A stretch of 48,999 nt of DNA, from the IMG/VR virus record IMGVR_UViG_3300001348_000001, one strand, 5' to 3'. The notes beneath the pieces were generated by a model that saw only the letters and a program-made list of their open reading frames with translations, searched no databases and was not told the DNA's origin. Position numbers and translations under genes: made by a program. The DNA comes from a virus. Below, piece after piece: positions 33,457 through 48,999 of this stretch (position 1 is the stretch's first letter; each line of letters opens with the position of its first letter).

Positions 33457-33684
33457 TTAAGACTCTGCCTGATCCTCTTCGGCTATTAAAGCTTCGGGAT
33501 CTAGATTCTCTTGCAACATGCCATTGTATGTTTTAGCTGCTGCGTTGAGAACGTCAATCTTTTTACTAAGCATTTGAACTTCAGACTGTACTTCAGCAAG
33601 ATAATTAAAAGCTACTTTACCAGCATCATTTAATTTTTCTACATCATACAAACCATCATCAGTTTTATATGTGAACTGTGTCAT
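33457..33684 (-). CDS. Hypothetical acidic protein (75 aa)
   Basis: ORF with ATGA overlap to the SSB gene. Confidence 0.55.
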   Translation of the reverse strand: MTQFTYKTDDGLYDVEKLNDAGKVAFNYLAEVQSEVQMLSKKIDVLNAAAKTYNGMLQENLDPEALIAEEDQAES

Positions 33685-34112
33685 AGTTCATCTACCTCCT
33701 CTTCATCTTCAATGATATCAAACTCATCTAAACCGCCCTTACTGAAAGAGACTAAGCTTTTAACCTGTACAGCTTGTAGGTCTAGTCCTTTATACAAAGT
33801 ACCTTGGCGAGTGATTTCCCACTCTTTATACTGGACACGTACAGTAGATCCATTACCGATCTGACAGTCCATTTCATTTTTCATATTGTCAATTAACTTA
33901 GGTGCAGTTCTAATCATACCATTAGGTCCATGCACTTTACGTTTAACAACAATGGTTGGGCCTTCTTCTTTATCTTTAACAGTAAAGCCTCGGCTCCTGA
34001 AGTCATTAGCAACTTCATTATCTACTACTACATTAATACTGTAGACAGGTTCATAGGTTGTGTTGGGGGTAGTGACACTAGCCCAGTAAGCAACTCCATC
34101 AACAATAGCCAT
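33681..34112 (-). CDS. ssb: Single-stranded DNA-binding protein (T7 gp2.5-type, 143 aa)
   Basis: AGGAGA RBS 7 nt before the ATG at 34112 (the track start at 34160 has no RBS). Acidic C-terminal tail DEFDIIEDEEEVDEL. Located in the replication module. Confidence 0.6.
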   Translation of the reverse strand: MAIVDGVAYWASVTTPNTTYEPVYSINVVVDNEVANDFRSRGFTVKDKEEGPTIVVKRKVHGPNGMIRTAPKLIDNMKNEMDCQIGNGSTVRVQYKEWEITRQGTLYKGLDLQAVQVKSLVSFSKGGLDEFDIIEDEEEVDEL

Positions 34113-37917: not shown

Positions 37918-38183
37918 TAATAATCTCCATAAGCTAAGTAGTCTTTTTGTTCTTGTTCAAAAGCTTGTTCCATAATTCCAAATAAAACATCATTAATACT
38001 TTCAAAAGGTATTAGTTTATTATTAACATCTACATGAGAGAACTCAATATACTGTTGTTGAATCATGTTGGGTGGCTCGTATTGAGGAGGCTCATAATAA
38101 ACAAGGCAAGAACCTTTTACTTTACCTACATTAAACTCTAATATTTTATTATACCTCATAGTCCTAACTCCCTTTTCATCCAC
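37917..38183 (-). CDS. Hypothetical protein (88 aa)
   Basis: ORF, coupled. Confidence 0.5.
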   Translation of the reverse strand: MDEKGVRTMRYNKILEFNVGKVKGSCLVYYEPPQYEPPNMIQQQYIEFSHVDVNNKLIPFESINDVLFGIMEQAFEQEQKDYLAYGDY

Positions 38184-38383
38184 ATTACATTAATTGCTTT
38201 CTTAGGGTGGCGCTTAACCTTTCCATCTATTACTGTATAATAATAACCGTAGTCGGCAGTGTCTGGTTTTTTCTTACAGATGAGAATCTCGTCGCCATCA
38301 TGAAATTTCTTGACAAAGCCTTTTAAAGTTTTATTAACAAACCAAATCCCGCTACATGAATCAACCCTAGTTGCGTAATACAT
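38156..38383 (-). CDS. Hypothetical protein (75 aa)
   Basis: AGGAGG RBS upstream of the ATG at 38383. Confidence 0.55.
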   Translation of the reverse strand: MYYATRVDSCSGIWFVNKTLKGFVKKFHDGDEILICKKKPDTADYGYYYTVIDGKVKRHPKKAINVMWMKRELGL

Positions 38384-38384
38384 C

Positions 38385-38558
38385 TTATAACCTCCTTAAA
38401 AAGGCGTCTATGTTTGTTGACCTATAATCAGAACCTTCACTACTATACCGACGAATCAAAGAGCCGTTTTTGGCAGTCTCATCAATGCAAATATGGTAGT
38501 CACAGTTGCCCACAGTTTTTACATATACACAGTTTTTACAGTCATGTTTGTATAACAT
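38385..38558 (-). CDS. Small Cys-rich protein (57 aa, MLYKHDCKNCVYVKTVGNCDYHICIDE...)
   Basis: Hand-translated base by base. AGGAGGG RBS 5 nt upstream. Fills the gap exactly. CxxC...C...C pattern suggests a Zn-ribbon. Confidence 0.6.
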   Translation of the reverse strand: MLYKHDCKNCVYVKTVGNCDYHICIDETAKNGSLIRRYSSEGSDYRSTNIDAFLRRL

Positions 38559-38559
38559 C

Positions 38560-39180
38560 TCAGCCCTCCTGAGTCAGATAAGTATAGTGTACTTCCGAGG
38601 CATGGAACCCGTCAACCCATTTACTATTAGATCCTGAGTCGTTAGCCAAAAATTCACACCAATTATTCCAAAGAAATTCTGTGCCATACTCATGGCAAAT
38701 CTTAATATAATTCCTTTTCTTTTCAATAAGTAACGCCTCCTTCTTAATATTTTTATCATACTCTAAACACTTTGGCTCAATGCCAAATAACTTTACATTA
38801 TGGCTATCCATACACCCAACTAATCCAGCAGTTAACTGACAAACAAAGCCAGCTTTAGCTAATCCAAGCCCCGGAATCCTAATGAATATTTTCATAAGTG
38901 ATAATGCTTTCTCGTCATCGTTCTTATGTGAGTTAATTACTGCCAGCATCTGGCTATAAATTTTATGCTTGTGAGTCATAATATACATATAACCTTTGGC
39001 CCTAGTTTTGTTTTTAAGAAACCTAGAGTCTAATTTAAACTTTTTAATATCCGTTAACTGAAAACCTACGGTTAACCAATTCATTCTGATTGAACAAATA
39101 ACCATAATAACAACCCATGCCATGTTATCGGCAGATCTTTGTGCATAAGATTGAACTTTAGTAGCGTGAGTTTTATACAT
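38560..39180 (-). CDS. HhH-GPD DNA-glycosylase-superfamily-like protein (206 aa)
   Basis: IPGLGLAKAGFVCQLTAGLVGCMDSHN aligns by eye with E. coli EndoIII [27 protein letters not shown] (helix-hairpin-helix plus conserved Asp). Confidence 0.45.
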   Translation of the reverse strand: MYKTHATKVQSYAQRSADNMAWVVIMVICSIRMNWLTVGFQLTDIKKFKLDSRFLKNKTRAKGYMYIMTHKHKIYSQMLAVINSHKNDDEKALSLMKIFIRIPGLGLAKAGFVCQLTAGLVGCMDSHNVKLFGIEPKCLEYDKNIKKEALLIEKKRNYIKICHEYGTEFLWNNWCEFLANDSGSNSKWVDGFHASEVHYTYLTQEG

Positions 39181-39419
39181 TATATTGTCTCCACATTTAA
39201 TTCAGTTTCTATCCAGACCTTGGCACCACAGGACAGTGGCTTGTCTGGACTATATACTAACTTAGCAACTACGTTACCTTCGGCATCTTTAATTAATGCC
39301 TGATTACATTTCCTATTTTGTTTATAATCTTTAACAGTAAGTACTGGTAGATCCTTTGGGTAAGCCCCTTTACTATTAGCTCTAATGTTATGCTGATTAA
39401 CATGTAATATAGTTTTCAA
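39180..39419 (-). CDS. Conserved hypothetical phage protein (79 aa)
   Basis: ORF, coupled. Confidence 0.5.
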   Translation of the reverse strand: MKTILHVNQHNIRANSKGAYPKDLPVLTVKDYKQNRKCNQALIKDAEGNVVAKLVYSPDKPLSCGAKVWIETELNVETI

Positions 39420-39628
39420 GTATTTCTCCTTTTATTTAACTCCATAGCACAATAAAGAATCTCATCTTGATATTGTCCTGCCTTTGGATTGTCAGGCATA
39501 GCCTCTAAAGCTCTGCTACAATCAAACATAATATATTTTAATGACTCAGTTTCTAAGTCATTGAATCTCTTTATGGTTTGGCTATGCCACTTACCAGACC
39601 CATCGCCATAAGAATAATACATATTCAA
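39416..39628 (-). CDS. Hypothetical protein (70 aa)
   Basis: ORF, coupled. Confidence 0.5.
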   Translation of the reverse strand: MNMYYSYGDGSGKWHSQTIKRFNDLETESLKYIMFDCSRALEAMPDNPKAGQYQDEILYCAMELNKRRNT

Positions 39629-39643
39629 TCTCCATTATGAATT

Positions 39644-39841
39644 TTATTCATCTCCAAATACACTATCCCACTCATCTTTAGTAATACCCGACACAATAAA
39701 CTCTCTTTCATCCGATGTTAAATTAGGCATAGCATCCTGAATTAACATACCACAACGCCAAGCCTCAATTTGCCTAGGGGTTACATCTAGATCTAAAGTA
39801 TTTTCTTTCTTACTAATCATTGATACTCTGGTAATTTCCAT
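39644..39841 (-). CDS. Hypothetical protein (65 aa)
   Basis: AAGGAG RBS upstream. Confidence 0.55.
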   Translation of the reverse strand: MEITRVSMISKKENTLDLDVTPRQIEAWRCGMLIQDAMPNLTSDEREFIVSGITKDEWDSVFGDE

Positions 39842-39842
39842 A

Positions 39843-40010
39843 CTAAAAACTCCTTAAACTTTCATCCCAAACTATTGTAAACAACATCATCAGTGGTACT
39901 GTGATTGGTAATAAATATATATTAAATACACTCACACAAAGCAGCGAGATTATTAATAATAAATATATTAAAAATATAAATACACTAACCATAAAATCTA
40001 CAAACCACAT
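39843..40010 (-). CDS. Small two-helix membrane protein (55 aa, MWFVDFMVSVFIFLIYLLLIISLLCVSVFNIYLLPITVPLMMLFTIVW...)
   Basis: Hand-translated. GAGGTGG upstream. Its stop lies 1 nt before the next ATG. It replaces the implausible plus-strand ORF 39901-40239. Confidence 0.5.
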   Translation of the reverse strand: MWFVDFMVSVFIFLIYLLLIISLLCVSVFNIYLLPITVPLMMLFTIVWDESLRSF

Positions 40011-40076
40011 AAACCACCTCGTAATATTAATTAAATTCAGGCGAGTAGTTTATTCACATACTCAGGTGACTCAGGA

Positions 40077-40535
40077 TTACTTCGCAGTTAGAATTTCTAA
40101 GATTTTATCCATCTTAGATTCTAAGGAATCTACCCGTTGCTCTAAAGTCTCTGGAGACTTCGTAGTCTCTTTTGCTTTATTCTTAGACCCTTTGGGTCTG
40201 CCTCGGCCCTTCTTAGGAGCCTCTGCAACCTTTGGTTGAACCTTGGGTGTAGCCTTCGGCTCAACACTAGGAATCTTAATAGTAATTAAGATGTCTGAGG
40301 GAACCACAGTGGCTTGAAAAGCCAATTGCACATCGCCATGAGTCATCTTAGAGTTCAATACTTCTCCGAAGTAATGACCTACAGCACCTCTCATCCTGTT
40401 AAACAGGACATAACGGTCCTGTGAAGTTAAATTTAACTTCGTGGCGAGTAGGTTAGTGTAGTGTGAGCATACAGCGTTGAACTGCTTGCCAGATGCCAGC
40501 TTGTTGTCGTCGATGTTGTATGTGAATGTCGCCAT
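40077..40535 (-). CDS. First early protein (152 aa) with HMGA-type AT-hook and C-terminal coiled coil
   Basis: AGGAG RBS 7 nt before the ATG at 40535 (the track start at 40637 has none). KKGRGRPKGSKNK is encoded at about 40172-40214. The C-terminus LEQRVDSLESKMDKILEIL is heptad-like. Confidence 0.65.
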   Translation of the reverse strand: MATFTYNIDDNKLASGKQFNAVCSHYTNLLATKLNLTSQDRYVLFNRMRGAVGHYFGEVLNSKMTHGDVQLAFQATVVPSDILITIKIPSVEPKATPKVQPKVAEAPKKGRGRPKGSKNKAKETTKSPETLEQRVDSLESKMDKILEILTAK

Positions 40536-40675
40536 GATAAAACTCCTGAGTTGCCAAGCAGCCGAATTGCTGGAGGCCATATCAAGGTGCTGGAATCCGA
40601 TTTGATTGTCAAGGCTTTCTGGTGCGCGATTAATCATGATCGCATTATGCGCCTGTTAACACGCGAAGAAAGCCT

Positions 40676-40940
40676 GCATCATGTGCACATGTCATCAGTG
40701 CATGTTGTGATCGTCCCTAGCAGTTGCCGAAACCCTTGTCAACACTTATTTTTTAGAACGTAGTTCTAGGGGTCGTGTGCATGTGCGGCCATGCGCGATG
40801 GCAAACTTTTTGAGCTTTGTCACATGAATTATTTTCATAATCATAGATTATGATGGGGTTGTGCATGTGTATATACCTGCGCGATTGGCAGCTTTTTGGC
40901 GGGTCTGTCAAGTATTTTTTAACTACTTTGTAGTTAGTTC
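40676..40940. repeat. Three degenerate direct repeat units of about 80-85 bp
   Basis: gtgcatgt at 40698, 40777 and 40861. tgcgcgat(t)ggca..ttttg at 40792 and 40878. tgtca[a/c] plus a T-tract at 40737, 40818 and 40906. Confidence 0.7.
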
Positions 40941-41134
40941 TGGAATTCTCATAGTATTATTATACTATGGATAGAAATACTCGTAAGTCTCTGAAAATCC
41001 TCGGAGAGTTTTAAAGAATCTTTAAAACTAACACACTAGGGAGTCCTCTGGGACTCTATCAAGTACATAAGAATTACAAAGTAATTTTATTTAATATTAC
41101 TTTAAAGAACTTTAAAGTATTCTGGAGTACTCTG

Positions 41135-41196
41135 GAGTTTCTTAAGAAACTCTGAGGCTTGGACTCTGGAAATCTTTAGAGTTTCTTAGGAAACTC
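41135..41196. repeat. Two near-identical 18-bp palindromes (gagtttcttaagaaactc at 41135-41152; gagtttcttaggaaactc at 41179-41196)
   Basis: Read directly. They differ at one central base and sit 44 bp apart, embedded in ACTCTGGAG word repeats. Confidence 0.85.
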
Positions 41197-41321
41197 TGGA
41201 GTCCTTGGAGGGTGGGCAGGAGGCCAGTACCCCCCACCCCCATATATACTAAATGTTATACATTTTTGGAAACTCTGGAGTGTCAAGCAGGTACTTCTGG
41301 GCGGGGCTAATAGACCCACTA

Positions 41322-41408
41322 AGGGCGGGTATTTAAAGACCCACTAACCGGACAACATCCTATAAGGATCTTATAGCTTCCTGTCCGGTTAGGGCGGGTA
41401 TTTAAAGA
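41322..41408. repeat. 18-bp direct repeat agggcgggtatttaaaga (41322-41339 and 41391-41408) flanking a nested hairpin
   Basis: Outer stem aaccggaca (41346-41354) / tgtccggtt (41382-41390). Inner stem ctataag (41360-41366) / cttatag (41370-41376). Confidence 0.85.
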
Positions 41409-41458
41409 AGATAAACTTATACATATATCTATATGTAACCGGGGGGACCGATTACGTT

Positions 41459-41487
41459 AGTATATAGCTGAAAGTGCGTTTTGTCAA
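41459..41487 (-). promoter_or_regulatory. Leftward sigma70-type promoter TTGACA-17 nt-TATACT
   Basis: Minus strand: -35 at 41487-41482, -10 at 41464-41459. Confidence 0.55.
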
Positions 41488-41501
41488 GTTAAATTTACTA
41501 C

Positions 41502-41529
41502 TTGACAAAATGGCTATAAGCTCTATAAT
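41502..41529 (+). promoter_or_regulatory. Rightward sigma70-type promoter TTGACA-16 nt-TATAAT in front of terS
   Basis: -35 at 41502-41507, -10 at 41524-41529. Both hexamers are consensus. Confidence 0.6.
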
Positions 41530-41536
41530 GATAAGT

Positions 41537-41926
41537 ATGAATAAAGAACTGACAGATAAACAACACTCTTTCTTAGAACACCTAGTGGAACAAGGAGGTG
41601 ATCCGAAGAAGGCAGCGGAGTTGGCTGGGTACAATAGTGGTCATTATCAGGTTGTAAAATCATTAAAAAAAGAAATATTAGACATAGCTGAAGGAATCCT
41701 AGCCCAGTCAGCTCCAAAAGCTGCTTTAAAACTTGTAGAAGTCATGAACTCTGATGTGCCTATTCCACAGGCTAACATGAGGCTACAAGCAGCACAGACA
41801 ATCCTAGACCGTGTAGGCTTAGGTAAATCAGAACGTATAGATGTAAGTCATAAGGCTGAAGGAGGTTTATTTATACTACCTTCTAAACAAGAGGTTATTA
41901 TTGATGGAGAATACGAGGAAGCTTAG
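41537..41926 (+). CDS. terS: Terminase small subunit (Terminase_2-like, 129 aa)
   Basis: MNKELTDKQHSFLEHLVEQGGDPKKAAELAGYNSGH matches the N-terminal HTH pattern of this family. Located upstream of terL. The track start at 41474 lies upstream of the promoter, so the ATG at 41537 is preferred. Confidence 0.65.
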   Translation: MNKELTDKQHSFLEHLVEQGGDPKKAAELAGYNSGHYQVVKSLKKEILDIAEGILAQSAPKAALKLVEVMNSDVPIPQANMRLQAAQTILDRVGLGKSERIDVSHKAEGGLFILPSKQEVIIDGEYEEA

Positions 41927-42137
41927 GGGACATGTACCTTTCGGCTATAAGAAAGAAAAAAAAGAATTAATACCTGTGCCTCTAGAACTAGAAGCATTAG
42001 AAGATATTAAACAAGCAGTAATTAATAAGCAGTTATCTTTACGTGATGGCTCTATGTGGTTAGAGCATAAAACAGGTCGTAAACTAAGTTATCAAGGTTT
42101 AAAGAATATAATTGACAATGAAAGATTGGGAAATTAA
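41901..42137 (+). CDS. Small DNA-binding protein resembling the Recombinase-domain HTH of serine recombinases (78 aa)
   Basis: GHVPFGYKKEKKELIPVPLELEALEDIKQAV...SLRDGSMWLEHKTGRKLSYQGLKNII follows the PxGY ... helix ... pattern. No catalytic domain. Confidence 0.45.
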   Translation: MMENTRKLRGHVPFGYKKEKKELIPVPLELEALEDIKQAVINKQLSLRDGSMWLEHKTGRKLSYQGLKNIIDNERLGN

Positions 42138-43794
42138 TCCAGATAAGTATCTTAAAGATGAAGATAATAACTTTATCTTTAAGGTAGACGGTACACCTAG
42201 ATTAAAAGGTGGTAGACCTAAAGGCTCAAAAGGCAGAGGATATAATTATCATAGTCAAACTAAGGCTAAGTTAACTGCTAACCGAGTTATAAAAGATAAA
42301 CAAAAGAAAATAGCTAAGACTGAATCTAAGCTACATGCTTATAAAGAATCTTTAAAAAACACAAAGCAAACAATAAAAAAGCTAGAAAACTCAGACTCCG
42401 ATAAAATTATAACCCCCGAAGAGCTATCAAACACCCCCAAGCAAGTTCAACAAGAAGCAAAAGAAAATGTTATCTTTGCTCCAAATGAAGGGCCTCAGAC
42501 AGAGTTCCTTGCAGCAGCCGAGACAGACGTTCTGTACGGCGGAGCAGCAGGGGGTGGTAAGAGCTATGCAATGCTCGTAGATCCTCTCAGATACGCTCAC
42601 AGAGCCGCACACAGGGCCTTAATTATTAGACGGTCTATGCCAGAGCTACGAGAGCTAATAGACAAAAGCCGAGAGTTATATCCCAAGGCTTTTCCCGGTT
42701 GTAAATACCGTGAAGTAGAAAAGCTTTGGAACTTCCCCAGCGGAGCTAAGATAGAGTTCGGCTTCCTTGAGCGTGATGCAGATGTATATCGTTATCAGGG
42801 ACAAGCATATAGTTGGATAGGTTTTGATGAAATTACTCACTTACCCACAGAATTCTCTTGGAACTACCTAGCTTCAAGATTACGTACTACTGATTCAGAA
42901 ATTGTTCCTTACATGCGTTGCACTGCTAACCCCGGCGGCGTGGGCGCTCACTGGGTAAAGAATAGATATATATTACCATCAGATCCTGATACAAGCTTTG
43001 TAGGCAAAGATGGCCTTACAAGAAAGTTTATACCGGCTCGTTTAGAAGATAATCCTTTCCTAGCAATGGATGGTCGTTATGAAAAGATGCTTAAAGCCTT
43101 ACCTCCTACACAACGTAAGCAATTACTAGAAGGTAACTGGGATGTTAATGAGGGCGCAGCCTTTACTGAATTTAGTTTAGAAGAACATGTAATACCGCCA
43201 TTTCAAATCCCGATTCACTGGGATAGAGTTAAAGGAATAGATTATGGCTACGCTAGTGAGTCAGCCTGTGTTTGGGCTACTATAGACCCAAGTGATGGCA
43301 CCCTCATTGTTTATAGAGAATTATACCGTAAAGGCTTGACAGGACAGGATTTAGGCACTATAATAACAGAGATGGAAGTAGAAGACCCCTTCTCAGTTCA
43401 AGGTGTACTAGATACAGCAGCATGGTCCCGTACTGGGACTACAGGCCCTACAGTCGGTGAAACATTAGTAAGACAGGGCCATAAGCTGCGTAGAGCAGAT
43501 AAAAACAGAATACAGGGCAAAATTCAAATCCACGAATACTTGAGGCTTCAGCCAAGCGGACGACCAAGATTACAGATTTTCAGTAGCTGTCCTAGCCTGA
43601 TACGCGAGCTTCAAAGTATTCCTCTGGATAAGACTAATCCTGAAGATGTCAATACTCATGCGCCTGACCACGCCTATGATGCCTTACGGTATCTTATTAT
43701 GTCAAGGCCAAGAGTAAATGACCCACTAGCACAAATGCGGCACTTACGTATGGAACAGGCTTATACACCAGCAGACGCAGATTTCGGATATTAA
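42112..43794 (+). CDS. terL: Terminase large subunit (560 aa) with a basic N-terminal extension of about 130 aa
   Basis: Walker A YGGAAGGGKS, Walker B WIGFDEITH, nuclease GIDYGY ... PDHAYDALRY. There is no in-frame ATG/GTG/TTG between codon 3 and the Walker A, so the extension belongs to TerL. Confidence 0.9.
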   Translation: MTMKDWEINPDKYLKDEDNNFIFKVDGTPRLKGGRPKGSKGRGYNYHSQTKAKLTANRVIKDKQKKIAKTESKLHAYKESLKNTKQTIKKLENSDSDKIITPEELSNTPKQVQQEAKENVIFAPNEGPQTEFLAAAETDVLYGGAAGGGKSYAMLVDPLRYAHRAAHRALIIRRSMPELRELIDKSRELYPKAFPGCKYREVEKLWNFPSGAKIEFGFLERDADVYRYQGQAYSWIGFDEITHLPTEFSWNYLASRLRTTDSEIVPYMRCTANPGGVGAHWVKNRYILPSDPDTSFVGKDGLTRKFIPARLEDNPFLAMDGRYEKMLKALPPTQRKQLLEGNWDVNEGAAFTEFSLEEHVIPPFQIPIHWDRVKGIDYGYASESACVWATIDPSDGTLIVYRELYRKGLTGQDLGTIITEMEVEDPFSVQGVLDTAAWSRTGTTGPTVGETLVRQGHKLRRADKNRIQGKIQIHEYLRLQPSGRPRLQIFSSCPSLIRELQSIPLDKTNPEDVNTHAPDHAYDALRYLIMSRPRVNDPLAQMRHLRMEQAYTPADADFGY

Positions 43795-43799
43795 TATAT

Positions 43800-45974
43800 A
43801 TGTCAGATGAAAATAGTTTAACAGCCAATGGTCTATACTTTGAACAAGTAGAAGACGAGCAAGGTATGCAATTGACTTTAGAAGAGTCCTTGCGTAATAA
43901 CTTTGTTGGTCTTCTTATGGATCGTTACGAACAAGCTGAAAGCTCTAGAGACATTGATGAACAGCGTTGGTTAACTGCATATCACAATTATCGCGGTTTA
44001 TACGACAAAAATGTACGATTTAGAGAGTCAGAAAAATCTAGAGTTTTTGTTAAAGTAACAAAGACAAAAGTCCTCGCAGCTTTTGGACAGCTTGTAGATG
44101 TTATATTCGGAGCTAACAAGTTTCCTATTGGCATTTCAGAGACTAAAATACCAGAAGGTATTAGCGAGTATGCCCATTTAGACCCTCAAAATCCTTTGCC
44201 CGGTATTGAAACTTCGGCAGAAGAAAACCCTGAAGGTAAGGAAGAGAAAAAAGATAATCCATTTGATGTGGGTTTTGAGGGTGATGGTAGAGTATTAAAG
44301 CCCGGAGCTACTTACGGGTCTGGAAAGTTTGACGAAATTTCTATTGAGGCACAAGGAGCAGACAAACTTGTAGATGGATCTAGTCCTAACCCAGCAGTAA
44401 TGGAAGTTAGTCCAGCAAAAGAAGCTGCAAGACGTTTAGAGAAGCTTATTCATGATCAAATTGAAGAATCTAACGGCGCTAGTGAAATACGCAACGCTCT
44501 TTTTGAGTCTGCTCTATTTGGAACAGGCATCGTAAAAGGCCCATTTAACTTTAATAAGACATTGAGTCGCTGGGAAGAAAATGAAGAAGGATCTAGGAGA
44601 TATTCTCCAATTGATGTGCGCGTCCCTCGTATTGAGTTTGTTAGCATTTGGGATTTTTTCCCTGATCCAAACGCTACAAACATAAACGAAGCAGAATATG
44701 TATTCCATCGCCACCGTATGAACCGCACTAAGCTGCGTTCGTTGGCTAAAATGCCATATTTTAACAAAGACGCTATTCGTGAAGCCTTAATGCTAGGGCC
44801 TAATTACGAAGAAAAAGACTATGAACAAGAGCTGAAAGATGACCATCGCACAGGCGAAGAAGGGTCAGGACAGTTTGAAGTTCTAGAGTATTGGGGAGTA
44901 ATAGACGCTGAGTATGCTCGCCAAGTTGGTATGGATATTCCAGATGAAGTAGATGACCTAGATGAAGTACAAGTTAACGCTTGGATCTGCAATGGTCAAA
45001 TGTTACGAGCAGTAATAAATCCCTTTACGCCTTTCAGATTGCCTTATCATGCCTTCCCATACGAAAGAAATCCTTATAGTTTCTTTGGTATTGGCGTTGC
45101 AGAGAACATGGATGACTCTCAAAAGATCATGAATGGTCATGCACGTATGGCAATTGACAATCTAGCGTTGTCAGGGTCATTAGTCTTTGATGTAGACGAA
45201 ACTGCTCTTGTGGGCGGTCAAAGTATGGAAATATTTCCGGGTAAAGTATTCCGAAGACAAGCAGGAGTACCGGGACAGGCAATTAACGGCTTAAAGTTTC
45301 CTAACACCTCACAAGAAAACATGATGATGTTTGATAAATTCAGACAGCTTGCAGATGAACAGACAGGTATCCCAAGCTATTCTCATGGTCAGACAGGTGT
45401 CCAGAGTATGACGCGAACTGCTTCAGGAATGTCCATGCTACTTGGCGCAGCATCCCTTAACATCAAGACTGTTATTAAAAACCTTGATGATTTCTTGTTA
45501 AAGCCTATGGGCGAAGCATACTTCCAGTGGAACATGCAGTTCTTAGAATCTAAGTTAGATGTTAAAGGTGACTTAGAAGTAAAAGCCACAGGTACTAATA
45601 GCTTAATGCAGAAGGAAGTACGTAGCCAACGCTTGACTATGTTCTTACAGACTGCTCAAAACCCTGCTATTGCACCATTCATTAAAATGAACAAGCTAAT
45701 TAGCGAGCTTGCTTACAGTCTTGACCTTGATCCAGATGAATTGATCAACGATCCAGAAGAAGCAGCACTAATGGCTCAAATTATAGGGATGCAAAATAAT
45801 GTTGGACAGGCAACTGGCCCGGAAGCTGGCCCCACTGGTGAACAACCCGGACCTATGGCTCCCCCTGAAGGAGCACCTCAGCAGCCTCAAGAGCTTGGAG
45901 CTACAGGTACTGGCGGTGGCAACATCGGAACTGGAGCTGTACCGCAGTCAGGGGAGGCTGAGTTCTCTGGCTAA
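43800..45974 (+). CDS. Portal protein (724 aa)
   Basis: Immediately downstream of terL, with portal-typical size. Low-complexity G/P/Q-rich C-terminus. Confidence 0.8.
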   Translation: MSDENSLTANGLYFEQVEDEQGMQLTLEESLRNNFVGLLMDRYEQAESSRDIDEQRWLTAYHNYRGLYDKNVRFRESEKSRVFVKVTKTKVLAAFGQLVDVIFGANKFPIGISETKIPEGISEYAHLDPQNPLPGIETSAEENPEGKEEKKDNPFDVGFEGDGRVLKPGATYGSGKFDEISIEAQGADKLVDGSSPNPAVMEVSPAKEAARRLEKLIHDQIEESNGASEIRNALFESALFGTGIVKGPFNFNKTLSRWEENEEGSRRYSPIDVRVPRIEFVSIWDFFPDPNATNINEAEYVFHRHRMNRTKLRSLAKMPYFNKDAIREALMLGPNYEEKDYEQELKDDHRTGEEGSGQFEVLEYWGVIDAEYARQVGMDIPDEVDDLDEVQVNAWICNGQMLRAVINPFTPFRLPYHAFPYERNPYSFFGIGVAENMDDSQKIMNGHARMAIDNLALSGSLVFDVDETALVGGQSMEIFPGKVFRRQAGVPGQAINGLKFPNTSQENMMMFDKFRQLADEQTGIPSYSHGQTGVQSMTRTASGMSMLLGAASLNIKTVIKNLDDFLLKPMGEAYFQWNMQFLESKLDVKGDLEVKATGTNSLMQKEVRSQRLTMFLQTAQNPAIAPFIKMNKLISELAYSLDLDPDELINDPEEAALMAQIIGMQNNVGQATGPEAGPTGEQPGPMAPPEGAPQQPQELGATGTGGGNIGTGAVPQSGEAEFSG

Positions 45975-47996: not shown

Positions 47997-48860
47997 ATGT
48001 CCGAACAGGCATACGAAGAGGAAGAAGTCGCAAACCCGTATAATGCACGTAAACCTTGGCACACACAAGATCGCAAACAATCTTTAAATGCTGCTGAAAG
48101 TTTGTATTACCCGGAAGATGAAGACGAAGAACCTCAACAGAAAAAGGCTACCCGCAAAAAGGCCCCTTCTTCTGAGGATGAACCCAATACTAATTATAAA
48201 AAACGCTATGATGATTTAAAGAAACATTACGATCAGAAGCTTTCTGAATTTAAACGTAAAGAGCAAGAACTATTGGATCAAGCTAGAGTAGCTGAACCCC
48301 AATACCAAGCTCCTAAGTCTCAAGAGGACTTAGATCGTTTTAGGCAAGAGTATCCTGATCTATATGATACGGTAGAAACTGTAGCTCACATGAGGAGCCA
48401 GCAAGAAGTAGAAGCATTGCGATCTAAGCTTTCTGTTATTGAACAGCGGGAAGCAGAAATTGCAGCGCGAGAAGCTGAGACGGCTTTACAGGAACGTCAT
48501 CCTGACTTTGATCAAATCAGAGGAGATGATGGGTTCCATGAATGGGCGCAGGAACAACCGGATCAAATACAAGATTGGATTTATAACAATCCAAACAATG
48601 TTACTTTAGCTGTTAAAGCGTTAGACCTTTATAAGTTAGAAACTGGGAAAGGACAGAATACTCAAAAAAGACGTTCAAATCGTAAGCAGCCACAAAGTTC
48701 TGCTGCTGATATGGTATCTACTAAAACAACCAATATAGATGCTAAGGAAGCTAAGATTTGGACAGAAAGTGAAATTGCGAAAATGTCCCTCGACCAATTT
48801 GATAGACACGAAGAAGAAATCAATATTGCGATGATTGAGGGAAGGGTTCGTAGAGGATAA
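47997..48860 (+). CDS. Scaffolding protein (287 aa)
   Basis: AAGGAG RBS. Highly charged, helical, E/Q/K-rich protein directly upstream of the capsid gene. Confidence 0.65.
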   Translation: MSEQAYEEEEVANPYNARKPWHTQDRKQSLNAAESLYYPEDEDEEPQQKKATRKKAPSSEDEPNTNYKKRYDDLKKHYDQKLSEFKRKEQELLDQARVAEPQYQAPKSQEDLDRFRQEYPDLYDTVETVAHMRSQQEVEALRSKLSVIEQREAEIAAREAETALQERHPDFDQIRGDDGFHEWAQEQPDQIQDWIYNNPNNVTLAVKALDLYKLETGKGQNTQKRRSNRKQPQSSAADMVSTKTTNIDAKEAKIWTESEIAKMSLDQFDRHEEEINIAMIEGRVRRG

Positions 48861-48999
48861 TCTTTTCTACTTAGGAGTAATATAATATGGCTTTTAACCA
48901 ATCAGACGCTCTATTTGAGCAAGGTACAGACACTAACGGTAACTTTGGTAATTCAGTAGCAGGTCAAACGAACTCGTTTTTCCTACCCAAAGTATATTC
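48597..48999. repeat. Second copy of the 403-bp terminal redundancy
   Basis: Identical to 1-403. Confidence 0.97.
48887..48999 (+). CDS. Major capsid protein, N-terminal fragment (duplicate of 291-403)
   Basis: Same sequence as 291-403, truncated by the window end. Confidence 0.6.
   Translation, partial: MAFNQSDALFEQGTDTNGNFGNSVAGQTNSFFLPKVY

Follow-up and report, generated by a model that had tools for sequence, protein, structure and literature searches.

The IMG/VR virus record IMGVR_UViG_3300001348_000001, a stretch of 48,999 nucleotides (nt) referred to here in its entirety as the window, contains at positions 41459-41529 two promoter-like sequences that point away from each other, one into the gene for the small terminase subunit (terS) and the other towards the early genes, with their -35 boxes lying in the arms of a perfect inverted repeat. 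The arrangement raises the question of whether the locus is a compact bidirectional switch, as proposed in the initial annotation of the sequence, or a pair of promoters that merely stand back to back. The evidence presented below favors the latter: two independent promoters, here denoted P_R (rightward) and P_L (leftward), that would be read by the host RNA polymerase, with a leaderless terS transcript on one side and with the repeat arising as a by-product of the promoter sequences. A probability of roughly 0.8 is assigned to this explanation as a whole. The pair is located at the exact divergence point of the two gene arms of the genome, at the right-hand end of a 1.0-kilobase (kb) intergenic region (40536-41536), and consists of the following elements.

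41502-41507, plus strand: -35 hexamer TTGACA of P_R; every hexamer position at least 98% conserved among 88 distinct relatives
41524-41529, plus strand: -10 hexamer TATAAT of P_R, following a 16-nt spacer; TATAAT or TATACT in all relatives
41482-41487, minus strand: -35 hexamer TTGACA of P_L; every hexamer position at least 98% conserved in the relatives
41459-41464, minus strand: -10 hexamer TATACT of P_L, following a 17-nt spacer; TATACT, TATAAT or TACAAT in the relatives

Promoters were scored by the number of matches, out of 12, to the TTGACA and TATAAT consensus of the primary-sigma (sigma-70) type. P_R scores 12/12 (TTGACA-16-TATAAT, with 6/6 in each box) and P_L 11/12 (TTGACA-17-TATACT, with 6/6 in the -35 and 5/6 in the -10 box), and the initial annotation had placed all the elements and spacers on both strands correctly. 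The window begins and ends with the same 403 bases (1-403 and 48597-48999), and these ends lie inside a gene, which indicates a circular-assembly overlap and a genome of 48,596 base pairs (bp). Five sites scoring at least 11/12 are found in the whole window, compared to 1.6 ± 1.2 in shuffled sequences, and four of the five are co-oriented with the surrounding genes. A simple consensus scan of positions 38000-45000 gives 25 matches where 19.3 are expected, and matches of this frequency would be in line with both sites being chance occurrences in A/T-rich intergenic DNA that have no promoter function.

The case against chance comes from conservation, and not from the statistics of the repeat. 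Relatives were collected through their TerS proteins and comprise 34 IMG/VR loci and 80 metagenome loci in addition to cultured phages. Both promoters, each with a score of at least 11/12 and within 260 nt of the terS start, are present in 85 of the 87 distinct upstream regions and in none of 87 equally long control windows taken from inside terS or terL. Across 88 distinct pairs, the -35 positions are 98-100% conserved, the T1, A2, A4 and T6 positions of the -10 box are 100% conserved, and each hexamer position reaches at least 97% with the exception of the fifth base of the -10 box, which is A or C. The spacers vary in sequence and hardly in length, with that of P_R being 17 nt in 77 of the 88 relatives and 16 nt in the rest, and that of P_L 17 nt in 86 and likewise 16 nt in the remainder. 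Hexamers and spacer lengths that stay fixed around freely varying spacer sequences are best understood as the signature of selection on promoter function, and everything expected of sigma-70-type promoters at the sequence level, namely a -35 box, a -10 box, a spacer of 16-18 nt and the maintenance of these elements while spacers and flanks drift, is found in both P_R and P_L. Adjacent 12/12 and 11/12 sites at the junction of the arms, kept in this manner, effectively refute the chance explanation, and both sites are very probably real primary-sigma promoters placed back to back. The cultured phages conform to the same picture: both promoters of HTVC115P score 12/12, in HTVC103P the leftward one scores 12/12 and the rightward one 11/12, and in HTVC033P the leftward one scores 11/12 and the rightward one 12/12. 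In HMO-2011 and CRP-1, terS is located away from the arm junction, and no such pair was found in the region upstream of terS.

If the promoters are real, the next question is whether the repeat that connects them has a role of its own. Two features are involved.

41479-41510, unstranded: perfect 11-bp inverted repeat with arms 41479-41489 (TTTTGTCAAGT) and 41500-41510 (ACTTGACAAAA), 100% complementary, separated by a 10-nt gap and spanning both -35 boxes
41488-41501, unstranded: A/T-rich segment between the -35 boxes; A+T 83-98% at several positions at approximately -38 to -45 of both promoters in the 88 pairs

The repeat is present just as initially annotated, with the -35 hexamers in its arms, and it is the sole perfect inverted repeat of at least 11 bp with a 3-20 nt loop in the window. 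Shuffled sequences, however, contain 0.52 such repeats on average and at least one in 29.5% of cases, so that the repeat alone is not significant. Its geometry is not maintained either. In the window, 14 nt separate the two -35 hexamers, compared to 17 nt in HTVC115P, 19 nt in HTVC103P and 40 nt in HTVC033P, and the 88 distinct relatives cover almost all values between 3 and 47 nt as well as 60, 96, 97 and 104 nt, with gaps of 3-10 nt in some lineages and of 20-104 nt in most. The length of the arms beyond the hexamers likewise varies between 6 and 11 bp, and in HTVC103P the two boxes are found in direct rather than inverted orientation (TTGTCAACT occurring twice). In three metagenome relatives (L073, L090 and L107), the leftward -35 box lies inside the rightward spacer (TTTGTCAAGCAATATAAT); the promoters of this subclade truly overlap, and polymerase binding to them should be mutually exclusive.

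What is conserved instead is an extended -35 consensus, aCTTGACAAAa, which is the same for each promoter when the 88 pairs are taken apart: C is found at position -36 in 86%, often preceded by A at -37, and TTGACA is followed by A in 80-85%, by a second A in 78-96% and by a weaker third A in 46-63%. Two opposed copies of this consensus necessarily create an inverted repeat of 9-11 bp, and the 11-bp repeat is accordingly regarded as a by-product with no function as a unit. The DNA upstream of the extended -35 boxes is A/T-rich, with A favored at alternate positions, and resembles the proximal subsite of an UP element; the segment between the boxes is probably UP-element-like for both promoters.

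The initial annotation had considered the repeat a possible site for a single dimeric regulator, of phage or host origin, which would bind both arms as an operator and control the two promoters together. The perfect 11-bp match covering both -35 boxes, the folding of the repeat as single-stranded DNA with z = -4.9 and the unusually well conserved bases around the -35 boxes would all suit such a model. A dimer with a fixed half-site geometry is nevertheless very unlikely, because the spacing (3-104 nt, with three overlapping loci) and the arm length both vary and because the same consensus is found at each promoter separately. The direct orientation in HTVC103P and a repeat frequency no rarer than chance are similarly at odds with an operator, and no helix-turn-helix protein, repressor or sigma-like protein was recognized in the window. 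Two further candidate roles for the repeat were discarded. As an intrinsic or bidirectional terminator it would have an A/T-rich stem and no T run on either strand, and it was absent from the terminator scan; a cruciform or hairpin role, despite the single-stranded folding score, is opposed by its location upstream of the two start sites, its lack of conservation and a frequency no rarer than expected by chance.

Another possibility is that RNA polymerase itself constitutes the switch, such that a polymerase bound at one promoter blocks or slows use of the other and the interference is selected as a direction toggle. The predicted start sites, at about 41537 for P_R and 41452 for P_L, are approximately 85 bp apart. 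A full polymerase footprint extends from -55 to +20, and two of these would overlap by about 26 bp at the locus, while the core contacts do not overlap in the window. In the lambda phage, polymerase bound at PR inhibits the activity of PRM (PMC3167631), and a toggle of this kind would also agree with the relatives that have gaps of 3-10 nt or truly overlapping promoters. Divergent promoters are counted as overlapping when the reverse start lies within -80 to +20 of the forward start (Bendtsen et al., PMC3167631), and at -85 the window pair falls outside this range, by a small margin and with start sites that are themselves predicted. Strong divergent back-to-back promoters can, moreover, stimulate each other through negative supercoiling (PMC5175336). 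Overlap is not retained across the relatives, where gaps are mostly 20-104 nt and contact between polymerases is impossible in the many that have 40-104 nt. The arrangement cannot have been conserved for the sake of exclusion because the relatives range from overlapping promoters to ones 104 nt apart, and the either/or switch by polymerase occupancy that was initially put forward is, on this evidence, improbable. The two promoters most likely fire independently, with incidental cross-talk being conceivable: polymerase interference or supercoiling coupling would be incidental to the 14-nt gap of the window lineage. P_R and P_L would then be the two main promoters of the phage, positioned at the divergence of its arms and read by the host primary-sigma RNA polymerase.

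On the rightward side, the position of the promoter relative to the gene that it would serve is of particular interest.

41536-41539, plus strand: start site predicted for P_R from geometry, either at the terS AUG or 1 nt ahead of it
41537-41926, plus strand: terS, small terminase subunit and first gene of the packaging/structural arm (PHROG 2538, E = 1.8e-4)

The ATG of terS at 41537 is located 7 nt after the -10 box of P_R. In 76 of the 88 pairs this distance is 6-10 nt while the intervening bases vary, and it is kept even though the length of the TerS N-terminus differs between clades. The annotated terS start codons are found 7 nt after the -10 box in HTVC115P and 6 nt after it in HTVC103P, whereas in HTVC033P a leader of 156 nt intervenes. 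A Shine-Dalgarno sequence would not fit between the -10 box and the ATG, and terS indeed has none, while 26 of the 36 genes in the window possess a Shine-Dalgarno-like motif, often AGGAG or GGAGG. Both hallmarks of a leaderless mRNA, the start-codon geometry and a missing Shine-Dalgarno sequence in a genome that otherwise uses it, are found here. Transcription would begin at the AUG or one base before it because the -10 box is only about 7 nt away and a Shine-Dalgarno sequence is absent, and the terS mRNA is probably leaderless, which would make a leaderless message the start of the packaging and structural arm. No literature on leaderless terS or on SAR11 start-site maps was found.

The leftward side is organized differently, as P_L is separated from its first gene by a long non-coding region.

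41435-41455, minus strand: hairpin located at the predicted leftward RNA's 5' end, GUAAUCGG-ucccc-CCGGUUAC
40536-41451, minus strand: repeat-rich stretch of about 0.9 kb, free of open reading frames (ORFs), which P_L would transcribe before the first early gene
40077-40535, minus strand: first gene of the leftward (early/replication) arm; AGGAG upstream, no family assignment

An AGGAG motif precedes the first leftward gene, whose start at 40535 is about 915 nt from the predicted P_L start. In nearly all relatives, the first ORF of at least 60 amino acids is found 450-1040 nt downstream of P_L, and the long ORF-free stretch is best viewed as a trait of the clade and not an oddity of the window genome. 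The untranslated leader of about 900 nt that had initially been noted for the leftward transcript is in this respect borne out, and it is clade-wide. A terminator scan of the minus strand between P_L and the first gene found no terminator-like site.

The hairpin is found in nearly all of 75 distinct relatives, in which it has 41 different 5'-arm sequences, C-rich loops and frequent G.U pairs, and its stem begins at a median of 8 nt after the -10 hexamer (75 sequences), which corresponds to the predicted 5' end of the RNA. It was assessed by folding each sequence individually and by a loop-anchored hairpin count. The mean folding energy is -8.1 kcal/mol for the transcript strand, compared to -6.9 for the complement and -3.5 for shuffled sequences (Wilcoxon p = 2e-6 and 9e-14, respectively, both values being inflated by sequence relatedness). 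RNAalifold gave no pairs on a MAFFT alignment of the region downstream of P_L, in which the register of the hairpin shifts between clades. The data favor the hairpin being an RNA-level feature of a real leftward transcript, and a stabilizing stem-loop at the 5' terminus is the simplest reading of it. P_L would start near 41452 and produce an RNA that begins with a small stem-loop, crosses about 0.9 kb of ORF-free sequence and reaches the early and replication genes.

Several other sequence blocks are present within this region. Directly after the 5' hairpin, the motif CATATAGATATA (41415-41434, minus strand) is kept across many clades while the neighboring bases vary. Further on, 70-330 nt downstream of P_L, a module at 41215-41286 (minus strand) reads TTGACA(c/t)TC-N10-AAAATGTAT-N6-TAGTATATATA-(G/C-rich, 12-16 nt)-TGGCC(T/A)CCTGCC and is found in 46 distinct relatives from all clades. 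Its -35-like box has the correct 17-18 nt spacing to a hexamer that makes a poor -10 box, and the TATATACTAA within it repeats the P_L -10 region in inverted orientation; roles as a second promoter, as an origin or as a pac site are possible for the module. As a possible genome-wide late-promoter motif, TATATACTAA is not enriched, with 13 matches at up to one mismatch compared to 7.9 expected. In the 700 nt downstream of P_L, the leftward strand is enriched in TTGACA itself by about 9-fold, with 1.49 copies per 700 nt compared to 0.12 on the other strand and 0.17 expected. In the window leader, copies are found at 40613, 40742, 40911 and 41286, and CTTGATAG is present near 41054; an A-tract is located upstream of the copy at 40911, and HTVC115P contains a similar motif. 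A dyad whose arms are 23 nt long (41344-41392) is flanked by direct repeats of AGGGCGGGTATTTAAAGA (41322-41339 and 41391-41408; relatives have 2-4 copies), and these repeats look like iterons or terminase-binding sites. By eye, the center of the dyad appears inverted in the relative L014 when compared to the window, and another relative, L002, has extra copies of the whole repeat/dyad unit. A long imperfect hairpin at 41126-41205, with 35-nt arms that are 80% complementary, is built from AACTCTGGAG-type repeats. A search of 40300-41700 against Rfam found no family at threshold and gave only sub-threshold look-alikes of microRNA precursors on the hairpin at 41125-41206, which are spurious. Sigma-54, sigma-32 and T7-type promoters were considered by eye in other conserved leader blocks and rejected, as their key bases are not conserved across the relatives.

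Given these features, P_L might not be mainly an mRNA promoter and could instead transcribe the non-coding region for the activation or priming of an origin, or to produce a functional non-coding RNA, with the early genes served by closer and weaker promoters. In T7, promoters that adjoin an A/T-rich stretch form the primary origin, and the phage studied here has T7-like replication genes for a primase-helicase, a family A polymerase and a gp2.5-like single-stranded DNA-binding protein (SSB). The distance of 0.45-1 kb that separates P_L from the first ORF in nearly all relatives, the clade-wide modules, direct repeats and A/T-rich tracts, and the enrichment of TTGACA on the leftward strand could be accommodated by such a role, as could the minimum of the cumulative GC skew at the P_L region. 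The turn in the skew coincides with the change in gene orientation, however, and is not independent evidence, and most of the extra TTGACA copies have no usable -10 box. In addition, no Rfam family is matched, and the lack of a terminator-like site before the first gene leads to an expectation of read-through into the early genes. As the principal function of P_L, origin activation or a non-coding RNA is considered unlikely, and it would be compatible with the independent promoter pair rather than exclusive of it.

Some observations weigh against the pair of independent, host-read promoters with a leaderless terS. Promoter activity and the exact start sites are inferred from sequence elements and geometry, and transcription data for the window phage or its relatives were not found in the literature searched. 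The G+C content of the window, about 40%, is higher than the 30-35% that has been reported for pelagiphages. Positions 41453-41455, which form the outer part of the hairpin stem, are upstream of the start site predicted for P_L, a small inconsistency. The distance from P_L to P_R is always at most about 100 nt, and that to the early genes is 0.5-1 kb; simple independence does not account for this adjacency. Finally, the flanks of the -35 boxes, C before and AA after, are 78-96% conserved at each promoter singly. Such tight conservation exceeds what is expected of a typical sigma-70 promoter, and a factor that recognizes CTTGACAAA at each promoter individually is conceivable; in the genome as a whole, CTTGACAAA is not enriched.

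The two promoters are not the only ones of high quality in this genome. The initial annotation had found it unexpected that a late structural operon would have a host-type promoter, yet in this phage group it is the rule, with 11-12/12 promoters preceding structural genes. A 12/12 promoter (TTGACA-17-TATAAT) is found at 43336-43364 on the plus strand, inside terL (42112-43794). Its hexamers occupy synonymous positions (TTG ACA; ATA ATA) and are kept in every relative of the same clade that was compared, while in a clade with 70% terS identity the promoter is absent and only the Met is kept. The promoter probably drives the portal gene and the genes downstream. An in-frame ATG at 43372, corresponding to TerL residue 421, is located 7 nt after the -10 box in the same TATAAT-N7-ATG geometry as at terS, and a leaderless 140-amino-acid C-terminal fragment of TerL is possible. 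In HTVC115P and HTVC103P, consensus promoters (11-12/12) are likewise found before the portal gene, and in HTVC103P also before a further structural gene. In the leftward arm, an 11/12 promoter (34173-34145, minus strand; TTGACA-17-TATACT) precedes the AGGAG motif and the ATG (34112) of the gp2.5-like SSB gene (33681-34112) and is likely an internal promoter of the replication arm. Searches of all large and all early ORFs against Pfam, PHROGs and PDB sequences revealed no phage RNA polymerase, sigma factor or known regulator, although many ORFs have no assigned function and a very divergent protein is possible. The phage evidently relies on the host polymerase throughout.

By its proteins, the window belongs to a marine podophage of the HTVC103P/HMO-2011-related assemblage that is related to the Pelagibacter phages HTVC115P and HTVC103P. 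Near-identical DNA was not found in the phage collection, and the relatives were reached via the TerL and TerS proteins. TerL is 63-68% identical to those of the Pelagibacter phages HTVC115P, HTVC103P and HTVC104P and 42-47% identical to those of HTVC033P, the roseophages CRP-1 to CRP-3 along with related CRP phages, and HMO-2011, while TerS shares 57% identity with the protein annotated as TerS in HTVC115P. The rightward genes run from 41537 through the window end to about 24.5 kb and include terS, terL, the portal gene and those of large virion proteins. The leftward genes extend from 40535 to 25193 and encode small unknown ORFs, DUF932, ThyX, the gp2.5-like SSB and the primase-helicase, as well as a family A DNA polymerase, an exonuclease, an endonuclease and ribonucleotide reductase. 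The GC skew flips at the same two places as the gene orientation, and a tRNA scan found none. Between terS and terL, a small ORF at 41901-42137 (plus strand), which contains GHVPFGYKKEKKELIPVPLELEAL, has a partial match to an integrase PHROG (phrog_95, E = 4e-5) and also a sub-threshold winged-helix match, and its product may be a small DNA-binding protein. This ORF overlaps the mechanically called TTG start of terL, and the real terL start is probably located further downstream.

In kind, the pair is ordinary, as back-to-back sigma-70 promoters are textbook biology. The nearest phage analogue is the PR/PRM pair of lambda, judging by the common layout of two back-to-back sigma-70 promoters in a phage control region. 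The start sites of PR and PRM are 82 bp apart, close to the approximately 85 bp predicted here, and the cI mRNA transcribed from PRM is leaderless, as is predicted for terS transcribed from P_R, so that each pair has one leaderless transcript. A further likeness is that polymerase at one of the lambda promoters can affect the other (PMC3167631). The lambda region, however, has three operators between and over the promoters, flanking repressor genes and a weak PRM that requires activation, whereas the window has no conserved operators and no recognizable repressor, both of its promoters are near consensus, the distance between the -35 boxes varies from 3 to 104 nt among relatives, and the pair serves a terminase/structural arm and a replication arm. 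Back-to-back is also the commonest arrangement of divergent promoters in bacteria (Beck and Warren 1988, cited in PMC5175336). The general bacterial pairs similarly share an upstream region, point in opposite directions and may be coupled through supercoiling, but here both promoters are of consensus strength and serve two genome halves, one of them abuts a start codon, and the pair includes no regulator gene. In their near-perfect boxes, A/T-rich upstream DNA and presumed use of the unmodified host holoenzyme, P_R and P_L resemble the strong consensus-like host promoters of other phages, such as T7 A1-A3, T5 N25 and lambda PL and PR. Those promoters serve only early genes, and the late genes depend on a phage polymerase, activators or antitermination; in the group described here, by contrast, equally good promoters are found at terS and within terL and, in cultured relatives, also precede the portal genes.

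A more far-reaching interpretation is that the pair forms the visible portion of a hitherto undescribed control region common to a very abundant group of marine podophages, in which equally strong host promoters would drive both arms from the start of infection, the timing of the packaging and structural genes would be set post-transcriptionally, for example through translation of the leaderless terS, and the leftward RNA, with its 5' hairpin and the module TTGACA-N17-ATGTAT-N6-TAGTATATATA-(G/C-rich)-TGGCCTCCTGCC, would act in the start of replication, packaging or antitermination. In its entirety this interpretation is speculative and rather doubtful. The word "promoter" does not occur in the group-defining papers that were searched (PMC9038755, a 2019 preprint on new pelagiphages, and PMC6918029), and the present analysis offers a first sequence-level picture of transcription in a globally abundant group of marine phages, the relatives of HTVC115P, HTVC103P and HTVC033P. 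For the annotation of these genomes, the picture is one of reliance on the host polymerase, consensus promoters on both arms, a probably leaderless terS, and a P_L placed far from the early genes ahead of a conserved non-coding region. As cultured members of the group share the architecture, these predictions would be directly testable.

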